From contig OY760142.1 in assembly GCA_963663225.1 (NCBI GenBank), positions 1,280,001-1,344,000 of the forward strand: a stretch of 64,000 bases of DNA. The letters run 5' to 3'. Source of the stretch: Nitrospirota bacterium (GTDB lineage Bacteria > Nitrospirota > UBA9217). Each line of letters opens with the position of its first letter. Position 1 is the stretch's first letter. Both the position numbers and the translations under genes were made by a program. Of the stretch, positions 1 through 19,487 are shown one piece after another. The notes beneath the pieces were generated by a model. That model did not search any database. It saw only the letters and a list, made by a program, of their open reading frames with translations, and was not told the origin of the DNA.

Positions 1-807
1 CGCACGCCGAATCCGTGCATCCGGTGCAACGAAATCATAAAATTTCGGCTGCTCCTGGAATATGCGCGATTGCAGTCGTTCGACTTTCTTGCAACGGGGC
101 ATTACGCGCAAATAGAACCGGCGCCGCAGGAGCCGTTGTTTCAGCTTAAGAAAGGCGTTGATTCCGGGAAGGATCAAAGCTATTTTTTGTATCGTCTTTC
201 CCAGGCGCAGATGCCGAACATTCTCTTTCCTCTCGGCGGGATGCGGAAAGAGGAGGTGCGTTCCCTCGCACGAGAACTCCGCCTTCCTGCTGCGGAACGT
301 CCGGAAAGCCAGGAAATATGCTTTGTGCCGGGAAATGACTACCGGGGTTTTTTAAAAAAGCACGCACCCGAAACGCTCCAGGCGGGCGACTTGGTTTTAA
401 GCGACGGAAAAATCATCGGCCGCCATACGGGCATCGCCTTCTTTACCGTCGGACAGCGGAGAAAGCTGGGGTACGCTGCCGGAGAACGAATGTACGTAGT
501 CAGAATCGAACCGTCCTCACAGCGGGTGGTGCTCGGACCGTTGTCTGAATTGCGAACCCGGAGCATTGTCGTGTCAAACGCGCATTTCATTCCCTTTACC
601 TCCCTCCGCACCGGCATGAACGTTTCCGTCAAAATACGGTATCGCTCGCGATCCGTTCCCGCCGTGATAGAACCCCGGGGGCAGAACGAAGTTCTTGTGG
701 AGTTGCAGGACGCGGCGGCGGGGGTCTGCCCCGGCCAGGCAGCCGTTTTTTATACAGACGATATCGTACTGGGTGGCGGCATTATAGAAGCGCCCCGGCA
801 ACAATAG
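1..807 (+). CDS. mnmA: tRNA-specific 2-thiouridylase MnmA (5' truncated by window)
   Basis: Frame is open from base 1 (RTPNPCIRCNEIIKF); ATGHYA, KDQSYFL, ESQEICF and PGQAAVFY motifs. Confidence 0.95.
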   Translation, partial: RTPNPCIRCNEIIKFRLLLEYARLQSFDFLATGHYAQIEPAPQEPLFQLKKGVDSGKDQSYFLYRLSQAQMPNILFPLGGMRKEEVRSLARELRLPAAERPESQEICFVPGNDYRGFLKKHAPETLQAGDLVLSDGKIIGRHTGIAFFTVGQRRKLGYAAGERMYVVRIEPSSQRVVLGPLSELRTRSIVVSNAHFIPFTSLRTGMNVSVKIRYRSRSVPAVIEPRGQNEVLVELQDAAAGVCPGQAAVFYTDDIVLGGGIIEAPRQQ

Positions 808-910
808 CTCCGGCTGCCTGTATTCACCTGGCCTGTCTGCCGCATACGGCTGCGTTCCGTGATGCAACGAAGAAGCGCAGCGGGCTTTTTCCAAATGCAT
901 ATATAAGCAG

Positions 911-940
911 TTGACAATGACTTTTTTATCATGCTAATAT
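911..940 (+). promoter_or_regulatory. sigma70-type promoter for the chemosensory cluster
   Basis: TTGACA (911-916), 18 nt spacer, TG-n-TAATAT (935-940). Confidence 0.6.
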
Positions 941-976
941 TCTAAAATTTTTGGAAACAGCACTCCGGGGGCATAC

Positions 977-2275
977 ATGGCAGGGGAAAAAATACTTGAC
1001 ATAGATGATAGTCCGACAGTCCAACGACTGATCGAGATGATTCTGACGACGCAAGGCTATCAGGTCGTTCTAGCGTCCGACGGCGATGAAGGCATTGCGA
1101 AAGCCCGGTCCGAACGTCCCGCCGTGATTCTTGTTGACTTTGTCATGCCGAAGATGAACGGATTCCAGGTTTGCAAGATCCTGAAAGAAGACCCGGAGTT
1201 CAAAGACACGCCCATTATTCTGGTAACGTCCAAGGGCGACAAAGTCGGCAGCAAATTCGTCGATGTTCTCGGCATTACCGAATATTTTACCAAGCCGTTT
1301 CAGCCCGAAGAACTTCTTGCCAAAATCCGGGAAGTAATCGACAAGAACAAGCAGGCGGTGCAGCCCGCGGCCCCGCCTCCGGTCAGAGAACCGGCCGGCC
1401 GGCCCGCACCGGTCCCGGGGCCGGGTGTGCAGGCAGCGCAAGGCGTTATTGAATCCATGGTGAAAAATATCGTCGAACAACTGCTCGACGATTTCGTAAA
1501 GAACACTCTTCCGCAGAAAATACAGCAGGAGTTGGCGAAGGCGCGGCCGGGCGGCGGCAGCACCGGCATCCAGGGGAATCTTGCTAGCGTGCCGATCGTG
1601 GAAGTGATACAGATGCTCGGGCTGCAGCGCCAGACCGGAAAATTAGTCGTCAACAAACCAGGCAGCAGCGTAGCGATTTGCTTTAAAGACGGACAGGTTG
1701 TTTTTGCGTCACCCAACAGCAACGGCAGTGACAGTGCCGCCATGGAAGGGTTTCTCAGGAAAGCGTGCAGGCTTGAAGAGGACAGCCTGCACCATGTTTT
1801 GCGTATTGCAAAAATGACGCAGCAGTCTCTTGACAGCATTCTTATCCAGGAGAAACTGCTTGGTGCCGCGGCTTTTTGCGAGGCCCTGAAACGCTATACC
1901 GAGGCCGCAGTCTACAGGGTCATGACCTGGAAGCAGGGCGCTTTTTTCTTTGAAAAAGTTGCACCGCCGGTGTTTACCAACCACGTGCAATTGAAAGTGG
2001 ACGACCTGCTTCTGGAGGGCGCCCGGCGGGCGGATGAATGGAGCCTGATCCAGCAAAAAATGCCGGATTTCGACATTGTGTTTGAACCGATAATCGGCGA
2101 TGCAGAAGAACTCACGACACGCGGCATGAGCGATATCGATATGAAAGTTTTTTCCCTGGTCGACGGTCGGAAAACCGTCCAGAAAATTATTGACCAGGCT
2201 GATTTGAGCGAGTTTGATGTGGCCAAAAGCCTGTTTATCCTGCTTTCGGTCAATCTTATCAGGAAGCGGCGCTGA
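977..2275 (+). CDS. Response regulator: N-terminal receiver plus DUF4388 (PatA-N-like) domain; PilG/PatA-like position
   Basis: DD...VDFVMP...TS...KPF receiver; Pro-rich linker; IQGNLASVPIVEVIQMLGLQRQTGKL and WKQGAFFF, LLLEGARRADE typical of DUF4388. Confidence 0.85.
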   Translation: MAGEKILDIDDSPTVQRLIEMILTTQGYQVVLASDGDEGIAKARSERPAVILVDFVMPKMNGFQVCKILKEDPEFKDTPIILVTSKGDKVGSKFVDVLGITEYFTKPFQPEELLAKIREVIDKNKQAVQPAAPPPVREPAGRPAPVPGPGVQAAQGVIESMVKNIVEQLLDDFVKNTLPQKIQQELAKARPGGGSTGIQGNLASVPIVEVIQMLGLQRQTGKLVVNKPGSSVAICFKDGQVVFASPNSNGSDSAAMEGFLRKACRLEEDSLHHVLRIAKMTQQSLDSILIQEKLLGAAAFCEALKRYTEAAVYRVMTWKQGAFFFEKVAPPVFTNHVQLKVDDLLLEGARRADEWSLIQQKMPDFDIVFEPIIGDAEELTTRGMSDIDMKVFSLVDGRKTVQKIIDQADLSEFDVAKSLFILLSVNLIRKRR

Positions 2276-2341
2276 ACTTTTTTGCCGGCACGAAAACACC
2301 CTGTTTTTCTTCACTGATCACGTGCCGAATAAAACGAAAAC

Positions 2342-2370
2342 TTGACAGAACCAAAGAAATGTGTTAATTT
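2342..2370 (+). promoter_or_regulatory. Internal sigma70-type promoter upstream of cheY/pilH
   Basis: TTGACA-N17-TAATTT with extended TG. Confidence 0.6.
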
Positions 2371-2406
2371 TTAGTAACCTGTAATCAGGAGAAAAAGGAG
2401 ACTGGC

Positions 2407-2766
2407 ATGGCCAAAATACTCATTGCGGATGATAGCGTGGCTGAGCTTCAAATCCTCCAGCAAACCCTTCAATCTACGGGCCATTCGATCATAACCGTCC
2501 TCGATGGAGAAGCGGCAGAGGAGAAGATCAAATCGGAAAAAATCGACTTGATCATTTTAGATGTCATCATGCCTAAAAAAAATGGTTTTCAGGTCTGCAG
2601 AGACATCAAGAGCAATGACCAATACAAAAAAATACCTATTATCATGGTAACCTCCAAAGACCAGGAAAGCGATAAATTCTGGGGGATGAAGCAGGGTGCT
2701 GATGAGTATTTGACCAAACCGTTCAAACCTGAAGATCTGCTGAAGGCAGTTAAAAAGTATATCTAA
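2407..2766 (+). CDS. Single-domain CheY/PilH-like response regulator
   Basis: 119 aa receiver; TSKDQESDKFWGMKQGADEYLTKPF closely resembles PilH; AGGAG RBS. Confidence 0.9.
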   Translation: MAKILIADDSVAELQILQQTLQSTGHSIITVLDGEAAEEKIKSEKIDLIILDVIMPKKNGFQVCRDIKSNDQYKKIPIIMVTSKDQESDKFWGMKQGADEYLTKPFKPEDLLKAVKKYI

Positions 2767-2788
2767 ATCCCTACAAAAGGGGGCCCGT

Positions 2789-3283
2789 TTGGCCGAGACT
2801 GACAGCGACGTCACCGTCGAGGTAAACAGTACACAACCGGAAGAGGAAATTCGAGTTTGCCTCTTCACTATTGGCGAGGACACGTATGCCATACCGGTCG
2901 AATTGCTGACGGAAATCATCATTCCTCAGAATATTTTTCCTGTCCCGACCACCCCGCCTCATGTGCTCGGCGTTATTAATCTTCGTGGAAACATTGTTCC
3001 CATTGTTGATATACGAGAAACACTTTCGCTTTCACAAAACCCCGCGACCACGAACCAGATTGCCATTATAAAACAGGGCACCATCACGCTGGGCATTGTT
3101 GTTGATAATGTCTCCGAAGTTATTTCAGTTCCCGTAAGCAGTATGCTGGCCATCCCCGCAGATTATGGAGCGAAAGCCAGCAGAAGCCGCAGCCGTTTTT
3201 TTAAAGGAATTTTACAGCGAGAGACCGGTTTGGCCGCAGTTTTGAATATCGAGCGCCTTATAGAAGAGATAAAACTGACTTGA
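2789..3283 (+). CDS. cheW: CheW (PilI-like) adaptor
   Basis: VPTTPPHVLGVINLRGNIVPIVD CheW motif; TTG start. Confidence 0.9.
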   Translation: MAETDSDVTVEVNSTQPEEEIRVCLFTIGEDTYAIPVELLTEIIIPQNIFPVPTTPPHVLGVINLRGNIVPIVDIRETLSLSQNPATTNQIAIIKQGTITLGIVVDNVSEVISVPVSSMLAIPADYGAKASRSRSRFFKGILQRETGLAAVLNIERLIEEIKLT

Positions 3284-3378
3284 ACCGTCTGTAATGTAAA
3301 GCATCCCGACAATGAATCGCACGGCTAAAGCAAAGCCACCGAATTCACGAAACCAGAACGCTACGAAGGAGTAATTTT

Positions 3379-5235
3379 ATGAACAAGAAAACACTGAATC
3401 CTTTTTATGGGTGGAGCATCCGAGCCAAAATAGTGGCCCATATTGTTTTCCTCTCAGTCGTTTTTGGTGGTTTCATGCTCTTTTACATATACAACCAGAT
3501 ACAGGCTTCCCAGCGGGATGATGTGATCAATAGAACCATCATCATGGCCGATGGTCTGAGTTCAAAGGTTGTGGAGGCGGTGCAGGTTGAGGACATCAAC
3601 GCGCTTCAGACGTTCAGAAACGAAGCTGCGTCGCAGCCGGAAGTGGCCTACTCCTTTATTCGAGACGCCAGAGGAAGGGTGCTCTCGTCCTCCTTTGAAG
3701 GGAACGCCGTCCCCGCAGATCTTCAGCAGATAAACAAACTGATGCCGGGTGTCGCGTATGGAACGCAGCCGGCAGACATTGTTTTAAAAGGAAACCCGCT
3801 CAGCGTAATCGATATTGCCACGCCGATATCCGGAGGAACCCTCGGCACGGTGCATATAGGCCTGAACATGACGGCAATCAATTATCATATCAGGTCCATT
3901 CTTATGAATATCATGGGACTTGGCGCAGTATCGCTGATCGTTTTGACCATTCTCAGTCTGTACCTGTCGTCACGCACCGTCGCGCCGACCAAAGAGCTTA
4001 TCCGGGTGGCGGAAGCCGTGGGGCGCGGAGACCTTTCAAACAAGGCCGTCGTTGACACCGGCGATGAACTCGGCCAGCTGGCAATCACCCTGAACCAGAC
4101 CATCGAACGCCTGCAGGGCCTTGTGCAATCAGAGACCGACCGCGATAAGATGCAGAGCCAGGTCATCGGACTTCTTTCAGTCGTGAGTACGGCCGCGGAA
4201 GGCGACCTTACCGCGAAAGCAGAAGTTACCGCCGACGCACTCGGATCGGTGGCTGACGCGTTCAACCTCATGATCACCGGTCTTACATCGCTGATCACGC
4301 AGGCCAGTACCGTGGCGGTCGAGGTGCAGCGCTCTACCTCGGAAATTTTGCAGTCGTCCGAACGCATGCGGTCCGGCGCTTCACAGCAGACGGCCCAGAT
4401 CAGAAACGCGGCAGAGGCGGTCAACGCCATGTCGCTTACTACCCAGCACATGGCCGAGAACGCCGAAGCGGCCACGCAGACATCAGTGAAGGCGACCCAG
4501 GCGGCGGTCAAGGGCGGAACGGCCGTGTCGGAAACGATCAAAGGTATGCAGCGCATCCGGGCCACCGTGCAATCCACCGGAAAGAAAATCAAGGGACTGG
4601 GCGAGCGGTCGCTCGAAATCGGCGCTATTATCGAGGTGATCAGCGAAATCGCCACGCAGACGAACCTGCTTGCATTGAATGCCGCAATCGAAGCTGCCCG
4701 CGCCGGCGAGCAGGGCAGGGGTTTTGCCGTCGTTGCGGACGAAGTGCGAAAACTGGCTGAACGGGCTGCCCGCTCAACGAAAGACATTACCGGCCTCATT
4801 AAAGGCATTCAGGTTGAAACAAGCGAAGCTGTGGCGGTCATGGAGGAAGGCACGCGGGAAGTGGAGGAGGGAACCAAGCTCGCCGACCAGGCAGGCGCCG
4901 CGCTGCGTGAAATTGAACAAATCGTGAAACAGACCGCAAGTCTCATGACGGACATCACCAGGGCCGCCGGAGATCAGGTGAAATCAACAGAAGGCGTTGT
5001 GCACACGATGGACAGTATCTCGAAACTGACACAGGAAACCACCCAGGGCGTGCAGGACACGGTGACGACGATCAGCAAGCTGGCAGACCTGACCACACGC
5101 CTGACAGAAGCAATCGGCAGATTCAAGACCAGCAAAGAGCAGGAGGCACCGCTTCCTGAACTTGAGCGGTACCCGTCTGCTACGGAAAATGTTACTACAA
5201 GCGACGAAGAAATCAAGCTCGGACTGATTAAATAA
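3379..5235 (+). CDS. Methyl-accepting chemotaxis protein (PilJ-like)
   Basis: Two TM segments, HAMP regions, signalling hairpin [36 protein letters not shown]. Confidence 0.95.
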
Positions 5236-5243
5236 ACGACCGT

Positions 5244-7910
5244 ATGGCTGGGCCATCAGATAAAGCAGGCATTATTGAATTTTTTCTCGTAGAAGCTGGT
5301 GATCACCTCCAGAACCTGAATAAGGGACTGTTGTCTATTGAGAAGGATCCATCTGATACCGCCCAGATCGATGAACTTTTCCGCGCAGCACATACGCTGA
5401 AGGGCTCGGCTGCCATGATGGGGTTCCAGGGCATCAGCGATGTGGCGCATAAGGCCGAAGACATGCTCGGCCAATTCCGTTCAGGAACCATTCCTATCTG
5501 CAAAGAATCCCTCAATTTTCTTTTTGACAGTGTAGACGCAATAAAACTGATGGTCGACAGTGTCGCGGTCAACGATCCTGAAGACATGCTGGTAGTGGAC
5601 AGCATCGCCAGGGCATACAAAGACGTTACCGAGAGCCTGCAAAAGACCGTTTCTCCCTCCCCCGCCGTTTCGGATCTCGATGTTGCACCCATCCTGACCG
5701 AGGATCTTAATTTGCCTTGGGAGCAAGCCTTTAGTCTCGAGGAAGAGCCGATTGTCGCTGAACCTGCCCTCGAACCTGTCGGAGGGCCTCAGACGGAGCT
5801 GGAACCAGAGGCTGAACTTCAAGTCCTTGATGAGGTTGAAAAGCCGGAAGAACTTGAGGAAATCGAAGCAATTGAAACAGCCGTTGAGGAACTTGAAGAA
5901 CAGGATGTCTTGCCAGAGACTCCCGAAGTCCGTGCAAATTTGCTTTCGACTGCGCACAAATCGCCGCTTCAGCAGGAAATAGACGAGACAAAGAAATCGG
6001 GCGTTCCTGAAAAGCGAGGATTCAGCCGCCGCGCTACAGACGTTGCCGATCTGGAAAAACAGTTTATTCGGGTCAACATTGACCGCCTCGACAATCTGAT
6101 GAATCTGGTTGGGGAAATGATTGTAAGCCGGAACCGTCTGGCGCACCAGGTCGATTTTATAAAAGTGCTGCGGGAGGAGCTTGCATTCAGCCAGAACCGG
6201 TTGCTGCACGAGATCAAAAAATTCGAGGAGAAATACGAATATACGCTGAGCATAGAGGCGCCCGGAACCAGTGAAAAACCGGCGGAACAGACCGGCGATT
6301 TTCTCGAACTGGAATTCGACCGCTATGATGATTTCAACCTGCTTTCCCGAAAACTCACGGAAATTACGAATGACACGAATGAAATCATGACTGATCTTGC
6401 CGGATTCTTCGACTCGTTTGAGGTTGATACGGCGAGAATTTCCACCATCACGACAAACCTGCAGGACGAAATTACCCTGGCCCGCATGGTTGAGATGGAC
6501 AAGCTCTATCAGCTGTTTCCCAGGCTGGTGCGCGATCTTGCGCAGGCAGAACGGAAACAGGTAAACATCGTGCTTTCGGGCGGAGAAACGAAGATCGATA
6601 AAACGGTCTTCGAAATCATATCTGATCCGCTCATGCACATGATCAGAAATGCGGTGTCGCATGGAATCGAGCCGGCTGCGGAACGCACGGCACTCGGAAA
6701 AGACCCGACCGGACTTCTCGTCCTGAAGGCTCGGCATGAGGGAAACAGCATCATAATTGAAATTGAAGATGACGGACGCGGTATGGATCCGGCCGTACTC
6801 CGGAGCACGGCCGTTGAGAAGGGTTTCATTACTCCGGGGGCGGCCCAGGCTCTCACGGACCCTGAAGCCATTAATCTTATTTTTCAGCCCGGGTTTTCCA
6901 CGGCTGCAACCATAGGCAAGATTTCCGGAAGAGGCGTGGGCATGGACGTGGTGGCGAACCAGCTGGTCCGCATTCACGGCCGGATAGAAATAAAAACGGA
7001 AAAAAATATCGGCACGAAGTTCACGATCAGGCTTCCTCTCACGCTGGCCATTGCACAAGCGCTCATTGTAAAGCTTAAAGACCAGGAAATAGCCGTCCCC
7101 ATGAACCTGGTCGAAGAAACCACACGGTTCTCCTCGAAAGATATTCAGCATGCCGCAGGGGAGGAAATGGTAAACCTGCGCGGATCCCTGGTAAAACTTC
7201 TGAAGCTGAATGAACTGCTCGGCCTCGGGAAATTGCCGAAAAAAGAGGAGACATTCCGGCAGCCGACGCTGATTCTCGGCTCGGCGGAAAAACGTCTCGC
7301 GCTTATGGTGGAAGACATTATCGGCCGGGAAGAAATCGTGGTCAAAACGCTGGGAGACTACCTCAAGGAAATAAAGATGTTTTCCGGTGCGACTATTTCC
7401 GGGGACGGCAATGTGCGGCTTATTCTTAATATTGCGTCGCTGTTCGGTGATGAGGCTGCGATGGCATCCCGAACGACGGTAGGATCGGCAAAACCGGAAT
7501 CAACGCCTGAGATTTCTACCAGAAAGCCGCGAGTGCTTGTTGTTGACGACTCCATAAGCATCCGGAAATATGTGCAGCGGTTTCTTGACCGGACCGGCTA
7601 TGAAGTTCACGTGGCGCCAGACGGCATGGAAGCCCTGAACGTCATGGGACGGGTGAAATTTGATGCCGTTATTACCGACCTGGAAATGCCTGTCATGCAT
7701 GGGTATGACCTGATGGTCGAGATGAAAAAGAATCCGGAACTCGCGAATATTCCAATCATCGTGCTTACGTCTCGGGCCGGTGATAAACACCGCCAGAAGG
7801 CTCAGGACATGGGAGCGCAGGATTATCTGGTAAAACCGTTTGAAGAGCAGGAAATGCTCGATGCGCTCAAAAAACTTCTCAGCGGAGCCGTCCTTACAAG
7901 TCGGACATAA
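5244..7910 (+). CDS. cheA: Hybrid CheA-receiver kinase (ChpA/PilL-like)
   Basis: Hpt FRAAHTLKGSA; ChpA-type LEFDRYDD; NAVSHGIE; SGRGVGMDVV; CheW domain; C-terminal receiver. Confidence 0.95.
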   Translation: MAGPSDKAGIIEFFLVEAGDHLQNLNKGLLSIEKDPSDTAQIDELFRAAHTLKGSAAMMGFQGISDVAHKAEDMLGQFRSGTIPICKESLNFLFDSVDAIKLMVDSVAVNDPEDMLVVDSIARAYKDVTESLQKTVSPSPAVSDLDVAPILTEDLNLPWEQAFSLEEEPIVAEPALEPVGGPQTELEPEAELQVLDEVEKPEELEEIEAIETAVEELEEQDVLPETPEVRANLLSTAHKSPLQQEIDETKKSGVPEKRGFSRRATDVADLEKQFIRVNIDRLDNLMNLVGEMIVSRNRLAHQVDFIKVLREELAFSQNRLLHEIKKFEEKYEYTLSIEAPGTSEKPAEQTGDFLELEFDRYDDFNLLSRKLTEITNDTNEIMTDLAGFFDSFEVDTARISTITTNLQDEITLARMVEMDKLYQLFPRLVRDLAQAERKQVNIVLSGGETKIDKTVFEIISDPLMHMIRNAVSHGIEPAAERTALGKDPTGLLVLKARHEGNSIIIEIEDDGRGMDPAVLRSTAVEKGFITPGAAQALTDPEAINLIFQPGFSTAATIGKISGRGVGMDVVANQLVRIHGRIEIKTEKNIGTKFTIRLPLTLAIAQALIVKLKDQEIAVPMNLVEETTRFSSKDIQHAAGEEMVNLRGSLVKLLKLNELLGLGKLPKKEETFRQPTLILGSAEKRLALMVEDIIGREEIVVKTLGDYLKEIKMFSGATISGDGNVRLILNIASLFGDEAAMASRTTVGSAKPESTPEISTRKPRVLVVDDSISIRKYVQRFLDRTGYEVHVAPDGMEALNVMGRVKFDAVITDLEMPVMHGYDLMVEMKKNPELANIPIIVLTSRAGDKHRQKAQDMGAQDYLVKPFEEQEMLDALKKLLSGAVLTSRT

Positions 7911-7914
7911 CGTT

Positions 7915-8325
7915 ATGGCTGAAAACAAACGGTTTTTGATATTGTCTTTGGAACACGAACAGTACGCCATTCCCATCACGAGGCTTCTGGAGATTACGGT
8001 TGCACGCAATATTCAGAACGATCCGAGCCTCGATGATTTTTTTGAAGGAAAGTTTGAATATCGCGGGTCGCCTATTCCGGTTTTGAACATTAAAAAATTA
8101 TTCAAGCTTTCCAGCAGCCCGCTGGAGACGCTTCTGGTCGTCAAAAACAAAAAGCGGACCTTCGGCATCCTCGTCGATGCAGTAACCGATATCCTGGACT
8201 CTGTCCAAAACGTAATTCCGATGCCGAAAGGGGTTGTCGCACCGGGGCTCCACTGCTACAATGGCGTTCTGCGGCACGGAGAAAACCTTGTTCTGCTGCT
8301 GAACGAGGACGGTTTGCTGCCATGA
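7915..8325 (+). CDS. Divergent CheW-domain protein (RomA-like half 1)
   Basis: GKFEYRGSPIPVLNI and FGILVDAV; ATG at 7915 just after the cheA stop. Confidence 0.8.
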   Translation: MAENKRFLILSLEHEQYAIPITRLLEITVARNIQNDPSLDDFFEGKFEYRGSPIPVLNIKKLFKLSSSPLETLLVVKNKKRTFGILVDAVTDILDSVQNVIPMPKGVVAPGLHCYNGVLRHGENLVLLLNEDGLLP

Positions 8326-8774
8326 TCAGCAGCTTTCTGGTGTTCCATCTGGCCGGCAGGCTTTTTGGTGCAAAGCTGCACGGTGCTATTGAGATCTTTC
8401 CGTGGCGCGCGTCTCGTTCTGTTCCGCTGTCGTATCCTTATGTGGAGGGACTGATCGATTATCGGGGGACCGTATACCCGATTTTTAGTCTGATAAAAAG
8501 GCTGGCCCTGAACAGATCGGCGCCGATCGGCTTTGCGGCGGAAACAAACGAGAGTACCGGTGCCGGGCAAAGCATTATTCTACTTGAAGAAAAAAAAATA
8601 CCGTTCGGAATTGTTGTGGACGACGTAGCACGAATGGCCCTGCTGGAAGAAAGCACATCCTCCCCCGCAGAAGCGGCGCCTGATGTCGATCCACACTATG
8701 TAAAAGGGGTCGTTTTTGAAAACGACCTGTCGATCATGATCCTCGATTTTGAAAGGTTGTTCCATGCCGGTTAA
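8322..8774 (+). CDS. Divergent CheW-domain protein (RomA-like half 2)
   Basis: VPLSYPYVEGLIDYRGTVYPIF, FGIVVDDV; ATGA overlap with the previous gene. Confidence 0.8.
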   Translation: MISSFLVFHLAGRLFGAKLHGAIEIFPWRASRSVPLSYPYVEGLIDYRGTVYPIFSLIKRLALNRSAPIGFAAETNESTGAGQSIILLEEKKIPFGIVVDDVARMALLEESTSSPAEAAPDVDPHYVKGVVFENDLSIMILDFERLFHAG

Positions 8775-10035
8775 ATTACTATTGGCAGATAAAAGCATCA
8801 CCATCCAGAAGGTCGTGGAGATGTTGTTTTCCGGAAGAGAGTATGAAGTCATCTGTGTGAGCGACGGAGAGGCTGCTCTGCACGAGGTGGAGAGGACCAT
8901 TCCGGGCGCTGTGCTGGTTGATATAGATCTGCCGCGGGTAGATGGCTACGCGGTTGCCACGCAGCTCAAAAACAATCCGAAACTTTCCCACATTCCGGTT
9001 ATTCTGATGATGAGCAGAGACGATGTATATGATACCGCGAAAGGCAAGCAGGCCGGAATCACCGATAAAATCGTCAAACCGTTCGAATCTCAAGAGCTCA
9101 TCGGCAAGGTGAAAAAAGTGCTTGCATCAGCGCCGCCGCGCAGAGAAGCGCCTGCCGCTCCGAAGCCGCAGGCGGCAAAGCAGGAGAGTCGTACCGTCCG
9201 TCCTCCCGTTACCGCAAGCGAACCAAAGCAGACGCCGACGTCTATTTTCGACATCATCAGCAACGCGCCTACGCACGCGGACCTCAAACAGGGTGCAGCC
9301 TCCGTTGAAGAGGACTCGGTTTTCGAGGTTGAGCCTGTTGTCGAGGAAATAGAAGCGCCATCTCTTCAGGAAGAACAGGCATTGCCGACCGGTGCAAAAG
9401 CAGTGGAAGAGATGCGGGCCAATTTAGGCCTGACGGAAATAACCGACGAAATCAAGCCGGAGATTGTCACGTTCGAATCGTTCGATACAACGTTCGAAAC
9501 AGCACAGCCTGCCGCGCCTATCACGCCGCAGGAACACGCACCCGCCTTACAACCAGCCATGCCGCCGACTTCGCAGCCGGTATTGTTGATGGACGATATG
9601 CGCAAACTGGTGTCGGAGACCGTATCAAAACAGGTAGCAGACGCCCTGAAAAACGTGCCCCCCCCGCCGGTGCAACAGCCGTCATTCTCGCTGGACGACG
9701 TACGCAAACTGGTGTCGGAGACCGTATCAAAGCAGGTAGCGGATGGCCTGAAAAGCATGCCGCCTCCGCAACCGGTATTGCCGATGGATGATATGCGCAA
9801 ACTGGTGGTGGAAACAGCATCAAAGCTGACCATGAATGCTTTGAAGGAGCTGCCGCCTCCCCCCATTCCTAAAATATCCGACGAAACAATCAAGCGAGGC
9901 ATCCAGGAAGCGGTTATGACTGTGGCCCGGGAGCTCGCGCGGGGCATAATTGAACAAGTGGCATGGGAAGTAATTCCGCAGTTGGCAGAGCACCTGATAA
10001 AAGAAGAGATTGAGCGTTTAAAGAAAACACCGTAG
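8764..10035 (+). CDS. romR: RomR-like response regulator (receiver, Pro-rich linker, conserved C-terminal helix)
   Basis: LLLADKSITIQKVVE N-terminus; C-terminal IIEQVAWEVIPQLAEHLIKEEIERL matches the RomR-C signature; lies upstream of valS. Confidence 0.75.
   Translation: MPVKLLLADKSITIQKVVEMLFSGREYEVICVSDGEAALHEVERTIPGAVLVDIDLPRVDGYAVATQLKNNPKLSHIPVILMMSRDDVYDTAKGKQAGITDKIVKPFESQELIGKVKKVLASAPPRREAPAAPKPQAAKQESRTVRPPVTASEPKQTPTSIFDIISNAPTHADLKQGAASVEEDSVFEVEPVVEEIEAPSLQEEQALPTGAKAVEEMRANLGLTEITDEIKPEIVTFESFDTTFETAQPAAPITPQEHAPALQPAMPPTSQPVLLMDDMRKLVSETVSKQVADALKNVPPPPVQQPSFSLDDVRKLVSETVSKQVADGLKSMPPPQPVLPMDDMRKLVVETASKLTMNALKELPPPPIPKISDETIKRGIQEAVMTVARELARGIIEQVAWEVIPQLAEHLIKEEIERLKKTP
9574..9870 (+). 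repeat. Three tandem in-frame repeats (102, 93 and ~100 nt) within romR
   Basis: Units start at 9574, 9676 and 9769; the core cgcaaactggtgtcggagaccgtatcaaa is identical in units 1-2; protein unit DD(M/V)RKLVxETxSK...LKxxPPP. Confidence 0.9.
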
Positions 10036-10070
10036 AACCAAATAACGAAAATAACTGACTGCCGGCGGAC

Positions 10071-10097
10071 GAGGGGACTAGTTCCCCTCTTTTATTT
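10071..10097 (+). terminator. Intrinsic terminator after romR
   Basis: GAGGGGA-ctagt-TCCCCTC hairpin followed by TTTTATTT. Confidence 0.7.
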
Positions 10098-10132
10098 GAA
10101 GGCGATGTGTGCAGTAAAGGAGATAGTATTTC

Positions 10133-12865
10133 ATGTCGGGAAAAGAACTGCCTAAAACATATGATCCTCAACAGGTCGAACAGAAATGGTACCATGACTG
10201 GCAATCAAAAAACTATTTTCATGCTGATAAAAACGCAGACGGCACGCCGTTCTCCATTGTAATCCCCCCGCCGAATGTGACCGGGTCGCTGCACATCGGC
10301 CACGCGCTGAACTCCACACTGCAGGATATTTTGACGCGGTGGATGCGCATGAGCGGTAGGAACGCGCTCTGGCTGCCCGGTACGGACCATGCGGGGATAG
10401 CCACTCAGAACGTAGTGGAACGCCAACTTGCCAAGGACCATATTGACCGCCAAAGTCTTGGGCGGGAGAAATTCATCGAAAAAGTCTGGGAGTGGAAAAA
10501 GGAATATGGCGGCAAGATCATCGGCCAGTTGCAGCGCCTGGGTGCCTCCTGCGACTGGGAACGCGAACGTTTTACCATGGATGAAGGTCTGTCGCGGGCC
10601 GTGCGGGAAGTTTTTGTCACGCTTTATGAAGAAGGTCTGATTTACCGCGGTGAACGGCTGATCAACTGGTGCCCGCGCTGCCATACTGCATTGTCCGATA
10701 TTGAAGTTGAGCACGAAGATGAAAAAGGCAAGCTGTATCATATTGCCTACCCGTTGAGCCATGACCCGAACATCCGGCTGACGGTGGCGACCACCAGACC
10801 GGAGACCATGCTGGGAGACACCGCCGTTGCCGTGCACCCGCTGGACCCGCGGTATAAAAGTCTCATCGGCAAGACCGTAGATCTTCCGCTCACCCGGCGC
10901 AAAATTCCGATTATCGGCGATTCAATCCTTGTTGATCTCGAATTCGGGACCGGTGCCGTCAAGGTGACGCCGGCGCATGATTTCAACGATTACGAAGCAG
11001 GCCAGCGCCAAAAACCGGAGTTGCTGCGGATAAAGATGCTTAATGAAAAGGCGGAAATTCTTTCCGATATTCCGGATGTGCTTCCTGATGTGTTGAAGCA
11101 TCTTGCCGGCAAACCAGCCAAAAAAGCGCGCGGCATGGTTGTAGAGCTTCTTCAGGAACGGGGTTTTCTTATTACAACTGAGGACCACGCCCATTCCATC
11201 GGCAAATGCTACCGCTGCAAAGCAGTGGTTGAGCCCTACCTCTCACCGCAATGGTTTGTGAAGACAACGCCGCTGGCAGAACCTGCAATCAAAGCCGTTG
11301 AGGACGGGGCGGTGAGAATCATCCCCAAGGGCTGGGAAAATACCTATTTTGACTGGATGCGGAATATAAAAGACTGGTGCATCTCGCGCCAGATCTGGTG
11401 GGGACATCGCATTCCTGCCTGGTATTGCGACGACTGCGGCGAACTTATGGTAACGCGGACGGACGCAGCTGCCTGCAAAAAATGCGGAAGTAAGAACATA
11501 CGACAGGAAACCGACGTTCTCGATACCTGGTTCTCCTCCGCGTTATGGCCGTTCTCGACGCTGGGATGGCCCGATAAAACCGGAGAGCTGAAGGTTTATT
11601 ATCCGACCTCAGTGCTTGTCACAAGCTTTGATATCATCTTCTTCTGGGTGGCCCGGATGATCATGATGGGCCTTCATTTCATGAAAGAAGTCCCCTTCCG
11701 GGACGTGTATATTCATGCGCTGGTACGCGATGCGGAAGGCCAGAAAATGAGCAAGTCCAGGGGAAATGTCATCGATCCGCTGGTGATGATAGACCAGTAT
11801 GGGACCGATGCTTTCCGTTTCACTCTTTCCGCTTTTGCGGCGCAGGGGCGCGATATTAAACTTTCGCCCGAACGAATAGAAGGCTATAGAAACTTTGCAA
11901 ACAAGATCTGGAATGCCAGCAGGTTCGTGCTCATGAATCTCGATCAGGATTTTGCTCCGGCTCCTGCGTCCGCAACAGCATCACTGTCTCTTGCAGACCG
12001 CTGGATTCTGTCGCGGCTGAATTCCGTTACGAAAGACATACAATGCGCCCTCTCCGAATATCGGTTTAATGATGTTGCTTCTTCGCTCTACCAGTTCATC
12101 TGGCACGAATACTGCGACTGGTACCTCGAATTGTCAAAACCGGCCCTGAACCAGGAGAAAGATTCTCCCAGCCGCACGGCGACCCAGGCGGTGCTTGCCC
12201 GGGTACTGGAAACCGCACTTCGGCTGCTGCATCCCCTTATGCCGTTCATCACGGAAGAAATATGGCAGACCCTGCCCGAACAGGCCAGGAACCGGCAGTC
12301 CTGCGGGGAACATGCAAAGGCGGGAAAACAGTATGATTCCATCATGGTCTCGCCGTATCCTGTTGCAGACGAGAAGCTGATCAATCCCGGGATCGAGCAG
12401 GACATGCAGATGGTCATGGACCTGATTTTGGCGATCAGGAATATTCGCGGCGAAATGAATATTGCGCCCTCGCTGCAGATAACGGCAATTGTGAAGGTAG
12501 ATCACGCGAAGCTTGGGGAGCACCTCGAACAAAGCGCACTCTATGTGAAAACGCTTGCGCGCGTGAGTGATCTTCGTATCGGCACGGAGGAACGCAAGCC
12601 GAAAATAACCGCTACGGCCGTCATTAAGGGCGCGGAGGTGTATGTCCCGCTGGAAGGTCTTCTTGACTTGGACCAGGAGCGCGAGCGTTTACAGAAGGAC
12701 ATGACGAAGATATCGCAAGAGATTGAAGTCCTGTCAAAAAAACTCCTGAACAGAAACTTTGTAGACAAAGCGCCGCAGGACGTCGTGGCAAAAAACCGGG
12801 AAAAGCTCGCCGAGCTGAAGTCAAAATATGAAAAGCTGACAACAAGCCTGAAGATTCTGAACTAG
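10133..12865 (+). CDS. valS: Valine--tRNA ligase
   Basis: PPPNVTGSLHIGH, KMSKS, WCISRQIWWGH, C-terminal coiled coil. Confidence 0.98.
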   Translation: MSGKELPKTYDPQQVEQKWYHDWQSKNYFHADKNADGTPFSIVIPPPNVTGSLHIGHALNSTLQDILTRWMRMSGRNALWLPGTDHAGIATQNVVERQLAKDHIDRQSLGREKFIEKVWEWKKEYGGKIIGQLQRLGASCDWERERFTMDEGLSRAVREVFVTLYEEGLIYRGERLINWCPRCHTALSDIEVEHEDEKGKLYHIAYPLSHDPNIRLTVATTRPETMLGDTAVAVHPLDPRYKSLIGKTVDLPLTRRKIPIIGDSILVDLEFGTGAVKVTPAHDFNDYEAGQRQKPELLRIKMLNEKAEILSDIPDVLPDVLKHLAGKPAKKARGMVVELLQERGFLITTEDHAHSIGKCYRCKAVVEPYLSPQWFVKTTPLAEPAIKAVEDGAVRIIPKGWENTYFDWMRNIKDWCISRQIWWGHRIPAWYCDDCGELMVTRTDAAACKKCGSKNIRQETDVLDTWFSSALWPFSTLGWPDKTGELKVYYPTSVLVTSFDIIFFWVARMIMMGLHFMKEVPFRDVYIHALVRDAEGQKMSKSRGNVIDPLVMIDQYGTDAFRFTLSAFAAQGRDIKLSPERIEGYRNFANKIWNASRFVLMNLDQDFAPAPASATASLSLADRWILSRLNSVTKDIQCALSEYRFNDVASSLYQFIWHEYCDWYLELSKPALNQEKDSPSRTATQAVLARVLETALRLLHPLMPFITEEIWQTLPEQARNRQSCGEHAKAGKQYDSIMVSPYPVADEKLINPGIEQDMQMVMDLILAIRNIRGEMNIAPSLQITAIVKVDHAKLGEHLEQSALYVKTLARVSDLRIGTEERKPKITATAVIKGAEVYVPLEGLLDLDQERERLQKDMTKISQEIEVLSKKLLNRNFVDKAPQDVVAKNREKLAELKSKYEKLTTSLKILN

Positions 12866-12915
12866 ATAAAAACGCGCGCTGCATGCTGCAGCGAACCGGC
12901 AAGAATGGCTAGGAT

Positions 12916-13752
12916 TTGATGATCAATTTAGCGCTCAAAAAACTGATCGAGCAGGCCCTGCTCGAAGACATCGGCCCCGGAGACGTTACCACGGAGGCAA
13001 CGATATTGCCCGAAGCAGAAGCCGTTGCGGCAATAACCGCCAAACAGTCTCTTGTTCTCGCCGGTATTTCCGTAAGCCGGGAAGTGTTTCACGTCCTTGA
13101 CTCTTCAATAGAGTTTGAGCCTCTTGCCCGGGACGGAGACTGTCTGAACGCCGGTGCAGAGATCGCCCGCCTGTCAGGCAAGACCCGGGCGCTGCTGATG
13201 GGAGAACGCGTTGCTTTGAATCTGCTCCAGCACCTGTCCGGCATTGCGACCCTGACGGCCCGGTATCTCGACAGCATTAAGGGGCTGAAGGTGGCGGTGC
13301 TTGACACAAGAAAAACCCACCCCGGTTTGCGCCAGCTTGAGAAATATGCCGTCCGGCTGGGAGGGGGCAGGAACCACCGCTATTGTCTGAACGACGGCGT
13401 GCTGATTAAAGACAATCATATTGCGGCAGCGGGGGGCATTACAAACGCTGTAAACCTGGTAAGAAAAAAATCCCACCATCTGCTTAAAATCGAAGTGGAA
13501 GCAAGGACCCTTGAGGATGTGCGGGAAGCGCTGTCCGCAAAGGCTGACGTAATCATGCTTGACAACATGGCGGTTGCTATGATGCGCGAGGCGGTGGCGC
13601 TGATCAACCATCAGGCGCTGGTGGAGGCATCAGGCAATGTGACCCTTGATACGATTCGAACCATCGCGGAAACAGGCGTTGATTTTATATCCTGCGGAAG
13701 CCTGACTCATTCGGCGCCCGCCGCCGATATCAGCATGAAAATCATCAATTAA
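12916..13752 (+). CDS. nadC: Nicotinate-nucleotide pyrophosphorylase (carboxylating)
   Basis: EDIGPGDVTT, DTRKT, LIKDNH, IMLDN, EASG motifs. Confidence 0.95.
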   Translation: MMINLALKKLIEQALLEDIGPGDVTTEATILPEAEAVAAITAKQSLVLAGISVSREVFHVLDSSIEFEPLARDGDCLNAGAEIARLSGKTRALLMGERVALNLLQHLSGIATLTARYLDSIKGLKVAVLDTRKTHPGLRQLEKYAVRLGGGRNHRYCLNDGVLIKDNHIAAAGGITNAVNLVRKKSHHLLKIEVEARTLEDVREALSAKADVIMLDNMAVAMMREAVALINHQALVEASGNVTLDTIRTIAETGVDFISCGSLTHSAPAADISMKIIN

Positions 13753-13848
13753 AACCGCAGGACAATCGGTAGCAACACCGGCACCATAGTTGCTCACTCC
13801 ACAGCGGGCAAAGCACGCATGAGGTGATGCCGCCCCGGTTTTCAAAGA

Positions 13849-14823
13849 ATGTATAAAGACAAAATACTGCGCCTCCTCAGATCATCACCTGCCGATTTCC
13901 TTTCCGGAGAAGAATTAGCCAGGAAAACAGGGATTTCACGCACCATGGTCTGGAAGCATATCAAGTCGCTCGAACAGGAAGGCTTCGGAATCGAGGCCGT
14001 CCCGTCTCAGGGATACCGAATCCTGAGCGAGCCTGATACCCTCCGGAAAAGCGACATACTCCAAGGGCTCAGGACCAAATTCATGGGCCGAACACTCCAC
14101 CTGCATCCCGCGGTCGCATCCACCAACACGCTTGCCATGGAGATGGCGTCGCTCTCATCGCCTGAAGGTTCTGTGGTCATTGCGGAAACGCAAACCGCCG
14201 GCAAGGGCAGAATCGGCAGGACATGGATTTCGCCGAAAGGAAATCTCTATTTCAGCGTGGTTCTGAAACCGAACATGCAGCTGCAGAAGGCCCCTCTTCT
14301 TACTCTCATGGGGGCGGTTGCAGTTGCTTCCACAGTCCGAACCATGCTCGCCCAGCAAGCCGTCATTAAATGGCCCAATGATGTTCTTATCGGCCAAAAG
14401 AAAATCAGCGGACTGCTTACCGAAATGAGCGCGGAGCAGGACCGCATCAAATATATCGTGCTGGGTATCGGTTTGAATGTAAACATGGATCTTGTGGCAC
14501 TTCCGTCCGACGTCCGCAGAAATATAACGACAGTGGCGGCGGAAACCGGGAAGAACATCCGGCGCACACCGCTGCTGTGCCAATTGCTGCTGGACCTTGA
14601 ACACTGGTACCGGGTGTTTCTCGAAGATGAAGAACTCGTTTTATCGGAGTGGAAAAAACTTAATGTGACGATCGGCAATCGGGTCACGGTACGCGGTCTG
14701 AACGATACTCTCGAAGGATTGGCGCAGGGAATCGACCGCGAAGGCAGGCTTATCATCACGCTTGATGACGGCAGTGTGGTCCACGTGGCTTCCGGGGATG
14801 TAACGCTGAAGCCGGTTTCATAG
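13849..14823 (+). CDS. birA: Bifunctional biotin ligase/repressor
   Basis: N-terminal HTH (SGEELA...SRTMVWKHI), QTAGKGR, KWPND, GIGLNVN. Confidence 0.95.
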   Translation: MYKDKILRLLRSSPADFLSGEELARKTGISRTMVWKHIKSLEQEGFGIEAVPSQGYRILSEPDTLRKSDILQGLRTKFMGRTLHLHPAVASTNTLAMEMASLSSPEGSVVIAETQTAGKGRIGRTWISPKGNLYFSVVLKPNMQLQKAPLLTLMGAVAVASTVRTMLAQQAVIKWPNDVLIGQKKISGLLTEMSAEQDRIKYIVLGIGLNVNMDLVALPSDVRRNITTVAAETGKNIRRTPLLCQLLLDLEHWYRVFLEDEELVLSEWKKLNVTIGNRVTVRGLNDTLEGLAQGIDREGRLIITLDDGSVVHVASGDVTLKPVS

Positions 14824-18770: not shown

Positions 18771-19487
18771 ATGAAAAAAATACTATTCGCAGACGATGTT
18801 AAAAATTTTTGCATAGAACAAAGCAGTTTTTTAACGCGGTCTGGCATTACGGTTTTTACGGCCTCCTCGAATGATGACATACTCAGTATCCATACGAGAG
18901 AAAAACTGGACCTCATTGTGTCAAAACTCGACATGCCGGGGCTTTCGAGTGAGGAGTTATTCCATAGTATAAAACAACGCGGGGATTTACAGAAGGTTTC
19001 GACCATTCTTCTCTGCAAGGACACTCCGATGCACAGGGCTCGATGCAACGAATGCAGAGCCAGCGCAGTCCTTAGTTTGCCGGTCGATTTTGAGCAGCTT
19101 CAGGCAACAATGCTGCACCTTTTGAACATTGCGCCGAGACAATCATACCGGGCCGCGCTCAAAGTCACTGTTGAGGGGAAATTCAAAAACAAGCCTTTTC
19201 TATACCGGATGGACAATATTAGTACCACCGGGATGCTTATTACGGCAGAAGTAAAACCAGAGGAAAGGCTTGCCCAGGGCGACCAGCTGGCACTTTCATT
19301 CTGCCTTCCCGAAGGAACTCATATCTATGCCCGGGGAAAAGTGGAACGGATTATTCCGCAGTCGCTTGCAGCAAATGTCTGCCTATATGGACTTAAATTT
19401 GACGAGCTTACCTCAAACGTCCAGTCGGAAATTGCAGCTTTTATCAGCAAAGAGCAGGACAATAAACGTACGTTCAACAGGGACTAG
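18771..19487 (+). CDS. Pseudo-receiver plus PilZ domain protein
   Basis: Receiver fold with phospho-Asp replaced (LIVSKLDMPG); PilZ RQSYR and NISTTG motifs, YGLKF. Confidence 0.8.
   Translation: MKKILFADDVKNFCIEQSSFLTRSGITVFTASSNDDILSIHTREKLDLIVSKLDMPGLSSEELFHSIKQRGDLQKVSTILLCKDTPMHRARCNECRASAVLSLPVDFEQLQATMLHLLNIAPRQSYRAALKVTVEGKFKNKPFLYRMDNISTTGMLITAEVKPEERLAQGDQLALSFCLPEGTHIYARGKVERIIPQSLAANVCLYGLKFDELTSNVQSEIAAFISKEQDNKRTFNRD

Follow-up and report, generated by a model that had tools for sequence, protein, structure and literature searches.

The polarity protein RomR of Myxococcus xanthus is defined by an N-terminal receiver, an unconserved and unstructured linker, and a Glu-rich α-helical C-terminus (residues 369-420) with an invariant Trp and an invariant Pro (Keilberg et al. 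2012, PMC3441718). The C-terminus (RomR-C) binds MglC, which docks MglB, and the receiver binds RomX, which engages MglA-GTP (PMC12719032). The M. xanthus romR locus consists of MXAN4462, encoding a protein with two CheW domains, MXAN4461 (romR) and MXAN4460, similar to Val-tRNA synthetases (Leonardy et al. 2007, PMC2034494, legend to Fig. 1). RomR is also found outside the Frz chemosensory context in Bdellovibrio bacteriovorus (Bd2761), where it shares 44% identity in the receiver and 38% in the C-terminus with the M. xanthus protein (PMC6428892). Here we analyze a stretch of 64,000 nucleotides (nt) from a Nitrospirota bacterium of the UBA9217 lineage (GenBank assembly GCA_963663225.1, contig OY760142.1, positions 1,280,001 to 1,344,000), hereafter the window, in which a romR gene closes a run of eight co-directional genes that otherwise encode a chemosensory (che) pathway. 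Positions below are counted from the first nucleotide of the window. The two CheW genes preceding romR and the valS gene following it reproduce the M. xanthus order, and the complete che cluster stands immediately upstream of this unit.

RomR identity and architecture

Apart from the receiver (Response_reg, 65.5 bits), Pfam recognized nothing in the protein encoded by the last gene of the run, and approximately 300 further residues matched no Pfam or NCBIfam family. The reference M. xanthus RomR (P0212, annotated as 'motility regulator RomR') was reached through one representative obtained in the C-terminal search described below. BLASTP against this protein gave 38% identity over 121 aa in the receiver (E 3e-25), and 52% over 42 aa between the C-terminus and reference residues 377-414 (E 3e-10), values in the range of those reported for the Bdellovibrio protein. 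A sequence-only reading of the window had called the last gene RomR-like and had tied this assignment to the C-terminus; the RomR-C match bears the assignment out. In the alignment, Asp53 falls on Asp53 of the M. xanthus protein and Trp401 on its Trp394, a residue on which the binding of MglC is reported to depend critically (PMC12719032). Neither Trp401 nor Pro405 varies among 23 close homologues or in a wider set of 40.

When the last 64 residues alone were searched among 1.84 billion proteins, 354 cluster representatives were retrieved at E ≤ 1e-3. Pfam scans of 104 RomR-C representatives of at least 150 aa showed the receiver as the sole domain in 64, no domain in 38 (mostly short fragments) and odd domains in two, with no CheW domain in any. 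Sequence searches against the PDB returned only generic receivers for the whole protein and two chance-level matches (E 0.19 and 0.24) for its C-terminal 154 aa. Judged by its sequence, the gene that ends the run encodes a genuine RomR orthologue.

An AlphaFold model built from a 23-row alignment (mean predicted local distance difference test score, pLDDT, of 65.5) contains a receiver fold at residues 1-122, disordered stretches, and a C-terminal helix at 373-421 with a block pLDDT of 79-92. This three-part build agrees with the published description of RomR (PMC3441718, PMC12719032). The linker (residues 126-368) is rich in Pro (14%), Ala (10.7%) and Glu (9.9%), and pLDDT falls below 50 at 127-155, 180-207 and 226-275. 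Its tandem repeats are modeled with medium confidence as helices at 276-296, 310-330 and 341-362. The window protein (423 aa) and M. xanthus RomR (420 aa) are thus alike in having a receiver, a disordered Pro-rich linker and a Glu-rich C-terminal helix, but differ within the linker, where the M. xanthus protein has a Pro/Gly-rich stretch and the window protein three 34-aa helical repeats. Among close homologues, the copy number of this repeat ranges from 0 to several. It is similar to the first half of the RomR-C block. Many distant family members have in its place a second RomR-C-like motif, with a Trp, directly ahead of the terminal one.

Gene order and coupling

The order of the eight genes is receiver-DUF4388 (PATAN), CheY, CheW, MCP, CheA-receiver, CheW, CheW and romR, as determined from the listing of open reading frames (ORFs) and Pfam. 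Together with the tight spacing from MCP to romR, a terminator and valS, this bears out the sequence-only reading gene for gene, although the 'RomA' named in its title corresponds to nothing found. Whereas the three early junctions are looser (131, 22 and 95 nt), only 8 nt separate the MCP stop (5235) from the start of cheA (5244) and 4 nt the cheA stop (7910) from the ATG of cheW2 (7915). The genes cheW2 and cheW3 share an ATGA overlap of 4 nt (8322-8325), and the end of cheW3 (8774) overlaps the romR ATG (8764) by 11 nt, with GAAAGG located 8 nt 5' of this ATG. We read the locus as one operon of two modules: module A (977-7910), the chemosensory pathway, and module B (7915-10035, followed by valS), the CheW pair with RomR.

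The romR locus in other genomes

In order to compare the surroundings of romR, species-representative genomes were searched with a 40-sequence alignment. Altogether, 619 of 632 matched stretches were confirmed, and the best 80 correspond to 79 loci, of which 23 are from Nitrospirota, 45 from Acidobacteriota and allies, and 11 from Geobacter, Desulfuromonadales and other 'delta' genomes (individual loci are referred to by L numbers). For the neighbour counts, every ORF of at least 60 aa was scanned with local hidden Markov models (HMMs) and BLAST. A same-strand RomR-C ORF was present in 66 of the 79 loci. Directly 3' of it, valS was found in 49 of these 66 (19 Nitrospirota, 23 Acidobacteriota and seven 'delta'). 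For a polarity scaffold and a tRNA synthetase this is a surprisingly stable pairing. In 14 of the 66 (eight Nitrospirota, four Acidobacteriota and two 'delta'), the 1.5 kb upstream of romR contain one CheW gene or two in the same orientation. CheW domains were verified by Pfam in both genes of L027, in L038 and in L075, where a single protein has two CheW stretches. Other genes upstream of romR vary, and include IscS/NifU, methylmalonyl-CoA mutase, and ArgJ with a beta-lactamase-like gene.

The gene order at 7915-12865 of the window is that of MXAN4462 to MXAN4460, with CheW domains upstream of romR and valS downstream. The two loci differ in that M. xanthus has a single protein with two CheW domains where the window has two CheW genes, and in what flanks this unit upstream, where the M. 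xanthus paper (PMC2034494) names the receiver-GGDEF gene MXAN4463 and the window has a complete che cluster. The fused form recurs at L075:9097-9876, which encodes one 259-aa protein with two CheW domains 5' of romR-valS and with Anaeromyxobacter CheW proteins as near relatives. This is the myxobacterial form, and it is split into two genes in Nitrospirota, in Desulfuromonadales (L027) and in Acidobacteriota (L025, L040). In a tree of CheW sequences, the first-of-pair CheWs of the window, L013, L027, L025 and L040 share one side of a branch with a support of 85 in the Shimodaira-Hasegawa-like approximate likelihood ratio test (SH-aLRT), and L013 is the earliest branch within each CheW clade. 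CheW1 of the window forms a separate clade with its orthologues from related loci. The cheW-cheW-romR-valS order is one ancestral unit. Because, as in M. xanthus, the CheW pair and valS are parts of the ancestral locus of romR, the che cluster was placed beside a pre-existing cheW-cheW-romR-valS locus. This membership of the CheW pair and valS is a point that the sequence-only reading missed.

That reading would have been undermined by a linkage restricted to a single genome, which is not what we found. CheA, MCP and receiver-PATAN genes stand upstream of cheW-cheW-romR in L001-L004, L008, L009 and L013, and a che cluster also stands upstream in L005 and L007, both cut by contig ends, giving in total nine Nitrospirota loci whose proteins are 43-80% identical to those of the window. 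The che-romR join is therefore clade-specific rather than unique. In L013, the receiver of RomR is canonical and valS is missing downstream. In the related locus L006 (8366-11872), a Lys-type RomR (see below) of 628 aa with an expanded repeat region is found without che or cheW genes. A gene of the Iso_dh family (isocitrate/isopropylmalate dehydrogenase) lies just upstream of this romR, with a 134-aa opposite-strand ORF lacking a Pfam match in between, and the Iso_dh family also occurs upstream of the che cluster of L001. We infer that L006 is a case of secondary loss, apparently through deletion of the whole che-cheW block.

Some further observations were made in the same set. L060, a Nitrospirota locus with no che cluster, encodes a stand-alone DUF4388/PATAN protein of 305 aa (7965-8882) 1.1 kb upstream of romR, and is a second, independent PATAN-romR neighbourhood. 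In 13 of the 79 loci (L021, L026, L029, L030, L045, L061, L067 and others), mostly of the Vicinamibacterales type, a RomR-like receiver protein upstream of valS scores below the RomR-C model, with the Glu-rich tail kept but the Trp and Pro of RomR-C absent. If Trp394 is needed, these proteins may have lost or altered their MglC interface. A single-domain receiver gene with a galactose-1-phosphate uridylyltransferase-like/HIT gene immediately behind it recurs approximately 6-7 kb downstream of romR (L001:17631-19033, L003, L004, L006 and L009), and in che-linked Nitrospirota loci stands downstream of valS-nadC-birA. Seven ORFs with a P-loop motif were considered as MglA and rejected on reading of their N-termini, without a family scan: five appear ABC-transporter-like, one MinD/ParA-like and one DnaA/Hda-like.

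The chemosensory module

Module A comprises the first five genes of the run. The acidic pair (DD) is intact in the receiver of the receiver-PATAN protein, and the single-domain CheY keeps DD, the phospho-Asp and the conserved Lys. In the MCP, two hydrophobic segments (residues 14-41 and 171-202) flank a weak sCache_3_2 match (23 bits, under the cut-off), from which we take the protein to be a membrane receptor. Its length exceeds that of the E. coli-type MCP models of NCBIfam by about 27 aa and equals that of the CtpM model, which suggests heptad class 40H. This class is not known to separate the type IV pilus (Tfp) class of chemosensory systems from the alternative cellular function (ACF) class. 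CheA has the HTLKG motif with His50, no P2 domain and an acidic linker at about residues 110-270. It gave only generic CheA matches in NCBIfam, all under the cut-offs. No cheB or cheR was detected among the Pfam-scanned ORFs of the window (beyond 14 kb, ORFs of at least 110 aa).

Cyanobacterial Tax/Pix clusters are likewise not known to carry CheB or CheR. They share with the window, as does Pil-Chp of Pseudomonas (both of the Tfp class), the order regulator, regulator, CheW, MCP and CheA-receiver, and the presence of one PATAN regulator. The Tfp-type order that the sequence-only reading had ascribed to the first five genes is thus present. ChpA carries more than the single Hpt domain of the window CheA. 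The window cluster is further set apart from these systems by the two additional CheWs and RomR that come after CheA. The cyanobacterial PatA likeness, also suggested earlier, holds for the gene order but not for the domain order, since PatA-type regulators have PATAN N-terminal to the receiver (bioRxiv 2021.06.11.447907) while the window protein has it at the C-terminus.

The Frz system of M. xanthus (ACF class) resembles the window cluster in its hybrid CheA with a C-terminal receiver, in having more than one CheW, and in its genetic link to RomR and polarity. FrzCD is a cytoplasmic receptor, whereas the predicted window receptor is membrane-bound with a periplasmic sensor. CheR and CheB (FrzF and FrzG) are present in Frz and absent from the window cluster and the Pfam-scanned ORFs of the window. 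A linkage of frz to romR is unreported in Myxococcus, whereas the window has che genes and romR as one operon. A FrzZ-type double receiver, a criterion of Keilberg et al. (2012, PMC3441718), is also missing from the cluster. With no FrzZ-type protein, no CheR/CheB and a membrane receptor, the window cluster is not Frz by the Keilberg criteria. A C-terminal receiver on CheA is given by the same authors as characteristic of the ACF class, including FrzE (PMC3441718). For the window CheA, the gene order would fit Tfp and the C-terminal receiver ACF, so that its sequence features appear to point both ways.

Proposed function and alternatives

The explanation that we favour, and hold on balance to be somewhat probable, is a two-module operon in which RomR is tethered to a chemosensory array and acts mainly as a scaffold or pseudo-receiver that biases the polarity switch. 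Module A would be a chemosensory pathway without CheB/CheR, composed of a Cache-HAMP receptor, CheW1, hybrid CheA-receiver, CheY and receiver-PATAN protein. The receptor-CheW1-CheA array would phosphorylate CheY and the receiver-PATAN protein, and the PATAN domain would have the type IV pilus motor as its target, like that of Synechocystis regulators, whose PATAN domains bind both PilB1 and PilC and are enough to switch the direction of phototaxis (bioRxiv 2021.06.11.447907). Homologues of mglA and mglB are sometimes encoded near PATAN genes (PMC4316618). In module B, CheW2 and CheW3 would keep RomR in place at the array or close to it, in the manner of a CheV split into adaptor and receiver proteins. 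Like CheV, the module pairs a CheW-type adaptor with a receiver, here in adjacent, overlapping genes. Unlike CheV, the proteins are separate (no CheW-RomR fusion among the 104 representatives) and the receiver has a long scaffold tail, and CheV may thus serve as an analogy for the mode of working rather than as a sign of membership. A complex prediction for CheW2, CheW3 and the RomR receiver (residues 1-130) scored 0.00 against a mark of 0.32, a run that had no controls and speaks neither for nor against binding. RomR's C-terminal helix would bind Roadblock-type MglC/MglB and its receiver RomX/MglA, and the state of the receptor would thereby bias the front-rear polarity switch.

Several points weigh against this explanation. 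Its output side (Mgl, pili) is wholly inferred: no mglA, mglB, mglC, romX or pil gene was found among the Pfam-scanned ORFs of the window, and a P-loop motif scan of the 79 loci gave no small GTPase. These loci were ranked by likeness to the window's RomR, and the fractions given above are no census. CheW2 and CheW3 match an Anaeromyxobacter-type fused double CheW weakly in BLASTP (E 3e-4 and 2e-3), no better than CheW1 does (E 3e-7). Because the pairwise similarity is this weak, the case for cross-phylum orthology of the CheW pair is made from position and from the SH-aLRT branch in the CheW tree. In the tree of receiver domains, all 66 RomR receivers fall on one side of a branch with a support of 0, and the window's RomR clade (nine rows, SH-aLRT 99) is joined by a long stem (0.93) to a polytomy; monophyly of RomR receivers is neither shown nor rejected by this tree. 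Finally, Asp53, Ser84 and Lys105 of RomR are invariant in the 23 homologues, and phosphorylation is thus possible.

The last point leads to the strongest alternative, that RomR is a phosphorylated output, CheA His50 passing its phosphoryl group to RomR Asp53 and the phosphorylated RomR resetting the MglA/MglB switch. In addition to the invariant residues, it has in its favour the common operon with translational coupling down to romR. That the kinase may signal directly to RomR had also been suggested in the sequence-only reading. In Bdellovibrio RomR, five of seven specificity residues are the same as in a CheA-dependent CheY (PMC6428892), and a direct phosphorylation of RomR by FrzE was proposed, but not demonstrated, by Guzzo et al. 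(2015, PMC4546325). According to unpublished preliminary data mentioned by Keilberg et al. (2012, PMC3441718), FrzE does not appear to phosphorylate RomR, the kinase being unknown. Against phosphotransfer stands the receiver pocket itself. The acidic pair of the window's RomR is broken (Asp9-Lys10), as opposed to Asp-Asp in the remaining receivers of the window, in M. xanthus RomR and in three further RomRs, and the phospho-acceptor pocket is thus incomplete, with Asp53 and Lys105 present. Lys is found at this position in all 23 aligned close homologues of the clade (one has Arg). The position corresponds to CheY Asp13, and CheY D13K is poorly phosphorylated (PMC4671073) and activating (PMC4671073, bioRxiv 781468), an effect known from CheY, not RomR. 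Over the 66 RomR-C loci, the pocket reads Lys in eight, Asp-Asp in 53, and is unreadable in five. All eight Lys-type loci belong to the window's clade and seven of them are che-linked; L007 likewise has Lys.

The Bdellovibrio protein offers a further comparison. Its phospho-site mutants behaved like wild type, so that phosphorylation is apparently unimportant there. Its acidic pair (D11 E12) is kept, and no surrounding che operon is reported in the consulted parts of that study (PMC6428892). Because Lys replaces the second Asp of the acidic pocket, we suggest that RomR in the window is mainly a tethered scaffold or pseudo-receiver and not an efficient phospho-acceptor, and the earlier proposal of direct signalling by the kinase is thereby weakened. 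A role as phosphorylated output is, in our view, rather unlikely for this protein. In favour of such a role, the che-linked, early-branching L013 keeps a canonical DD receiver, and the join therefore probably arose with a phosphorylatable RomR. If the sequences are read in this way, efficient phosphorylation would then have been lost in the crown clade.

A bolder version of the tethering model sees in the CheW pair and RomR an adaptor module of ancient origin, conserved from Nitrospirota to Myxococcota, that would plug RomR directly into an array. Array-bound RomR would then pass the receptor state on to the MglA switch through proximity or conformation and without phosphotransfer, the Lys clade being the phosphorylation-free end state and MXAN4462 the missing physical link between Frz and RomR. 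As a whole we regard this as an unlikely generalization.

Mere neighbourhood, in which a che cluster landed beside a conserved romR-valS pair and the modules work independently, is in keeping with romR remaining beside valS whatever stands upstream, with the lack of che genes in L006 of the same RomR clade, and with Myxococcus mglA, which is also unlinked to its partners (PMC4316618), but we consider it improbable given that the 4-nt cheA-cheW2 gap and the two start/stop overlaps argue for co-translation, that the arrangement is kept in nine loci at the modest protein identity noted above, and that CheW stands in front of romR across three phyla and in M. xanthus also where CheA is not nearby. 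Similarly improbable is an anchoring role, with RomR and the two CheWs placing the array at the pole, CheY and the receiver-PATAN protein as the only outputs, and a behaviour based on pili, flagella or other means. CheW domains bind receptors and the P5 domain of CheA, the Lys substitution is in keeping with a receiver that has ceased to signal, the linker of the clade has gained up to several helical repeats, and in M. xanthus the linker and RomR-C each suffice for targeting to the pole (Keilberg et al. 2012, PMC3441718). On the other hand, arrays of MCPs with two transmembrane segments usually need no dedicated anchor, and the Trp that binds MglC is kept, which argues that the interface on the Mgl side is still under selection.

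Features and other genes of the window

The features of the locus are summarized in Table 1. The promoter in front of the first gene is listed as a mere candidate because the scan as a whole was at chance level (seven found, 6.5 expected). Upstream of the gene run lies mnmA, as identified by Pfam. No RNA genes were found by Rfam (gathering thresholds, positions 1-14000) or ARAGORN (whole window), and none of the eight proteins could be assigned to a specific family by NCBIfam, all matches being far under the cut-offs.

Table 1. Features of the che-romR locus and its borders (window positions; TM, transmembrane segment).
Feature	Position	Strand	Description and basis
Candidate sigma-70-like promoter	911-940	+	TTGACA-18 nt-TAATAT; 10/12 matches, 37 nt 5' of first gene
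Receiver-PATAN response regulator	977-2275	+	432 aa; N-terminal receiver, C-terminal DUF4388/PATAN; Response_reg 6-118 (85 bits), DUF4388 199-356 (97 bits)
CheY-like single-domain receiver	2407-2766	+	119 aa; Response_reg 102 bits
CheW1 adaptor	2789-3283	+	164 aa, TTG start; CheW 106 bits
MCP	3379-5235	+	618 aa; TM1, periplasmic Cache-like sensor, TM2, HAMP, signalling domain; MCPsignal 160 bits, HAMP 45 bits
Hybrid CheA	5244-7910	+	888 aa; one Hpt, H-kinase_dim, HATPase_c, CheW-like P5, C-terminal Response_reg; Pfam
CheW2, first adaptor of pair	7915-8325	+	136 aa; CheW 64 bits
CheW3, second adaptor of pair	8322-8774	+	150 aa; CheW 75 bits
RomR orthologue (by sequence)	8764-10035	+	423 aa; receiver 1-122, disordered Pro/Ala/Glu-rich linker, three 34-aa helical repeats, RomR-C helix; Pfam, BLASTP, AlphaFold
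Tandem repeat inside romR	9564-9826	+	period 102 nt (34 aa), 2.7 copies, 71% matches; encodes three amphipathic helices with a Pro run after each
RomR-C	9868-10032	+	last 55 residues (369-423), one long helix, Trp401 and Pro405 invariant, Glu-rich tail; alignments, BLASTP, AlphaFold
Terminator-like hairpin and T-run	10071-10097	+	hairpin 10071-10089, 7 pairs (5 G-C), then TTTTATTT
valS	10133-12865	+	conserved neighbour 3' of romR; Pfam

Approximately 9 kb downstream of the operon, a receiver-PilZ protein of 238 aa is encoded at 18771-19487 on the + strand (PilZ 46 bits, Response_reg 37 bits). It is possibly a regulator binding cyclic di-GMP, and its very divergent receiver forms the longest branch of the receiver tree. 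Two probable surface or periplasmic proteins, apparently unrelated to the operon, are encoded further downstream on the same strand: a 685-aa DUF11 protein (34458-36515) and a 1263-aa protein with NHL repeats, fibronectin-III and TPR domains (41914-45705).

Significance

RomR and che pathways are each already known separately. As far as searched, three things are new: the joining of che genes and romR in one operon, the cross-phylum CheW-RomR-valS unit, and the receiver clade with Lys for Asp. No description of romR inside a che operon or of a conserved CheW-RomR module was found in the titles, abstracts or consulted passages of the papers listed by open full-text searches (subscription journals and supplements lay outside the scope), and the only mention of the CheW neighbour of M. 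xanthus romR (MXAN4462) found in open full texts is the 2007 figure legend (PMC2034494). With this locus, che-linked RomR is also extended to the phylum Nitrospirota, which the consulted parts of PMC3441718 and PMC4546325 do not name among lineages with RomR.

The CheW-RomR-valS arrangement is common to the window and Myxococcus, in whose field the route from chemosensory signals to the RomR/MglA switch is an open point (PMC3441718, PMC4546325). By bringing RomR into one operon with a specific kinase, a receptor and a dedicated pair of CheW adaptors, the locus provides a lead on how sensing and polarity are wired together.

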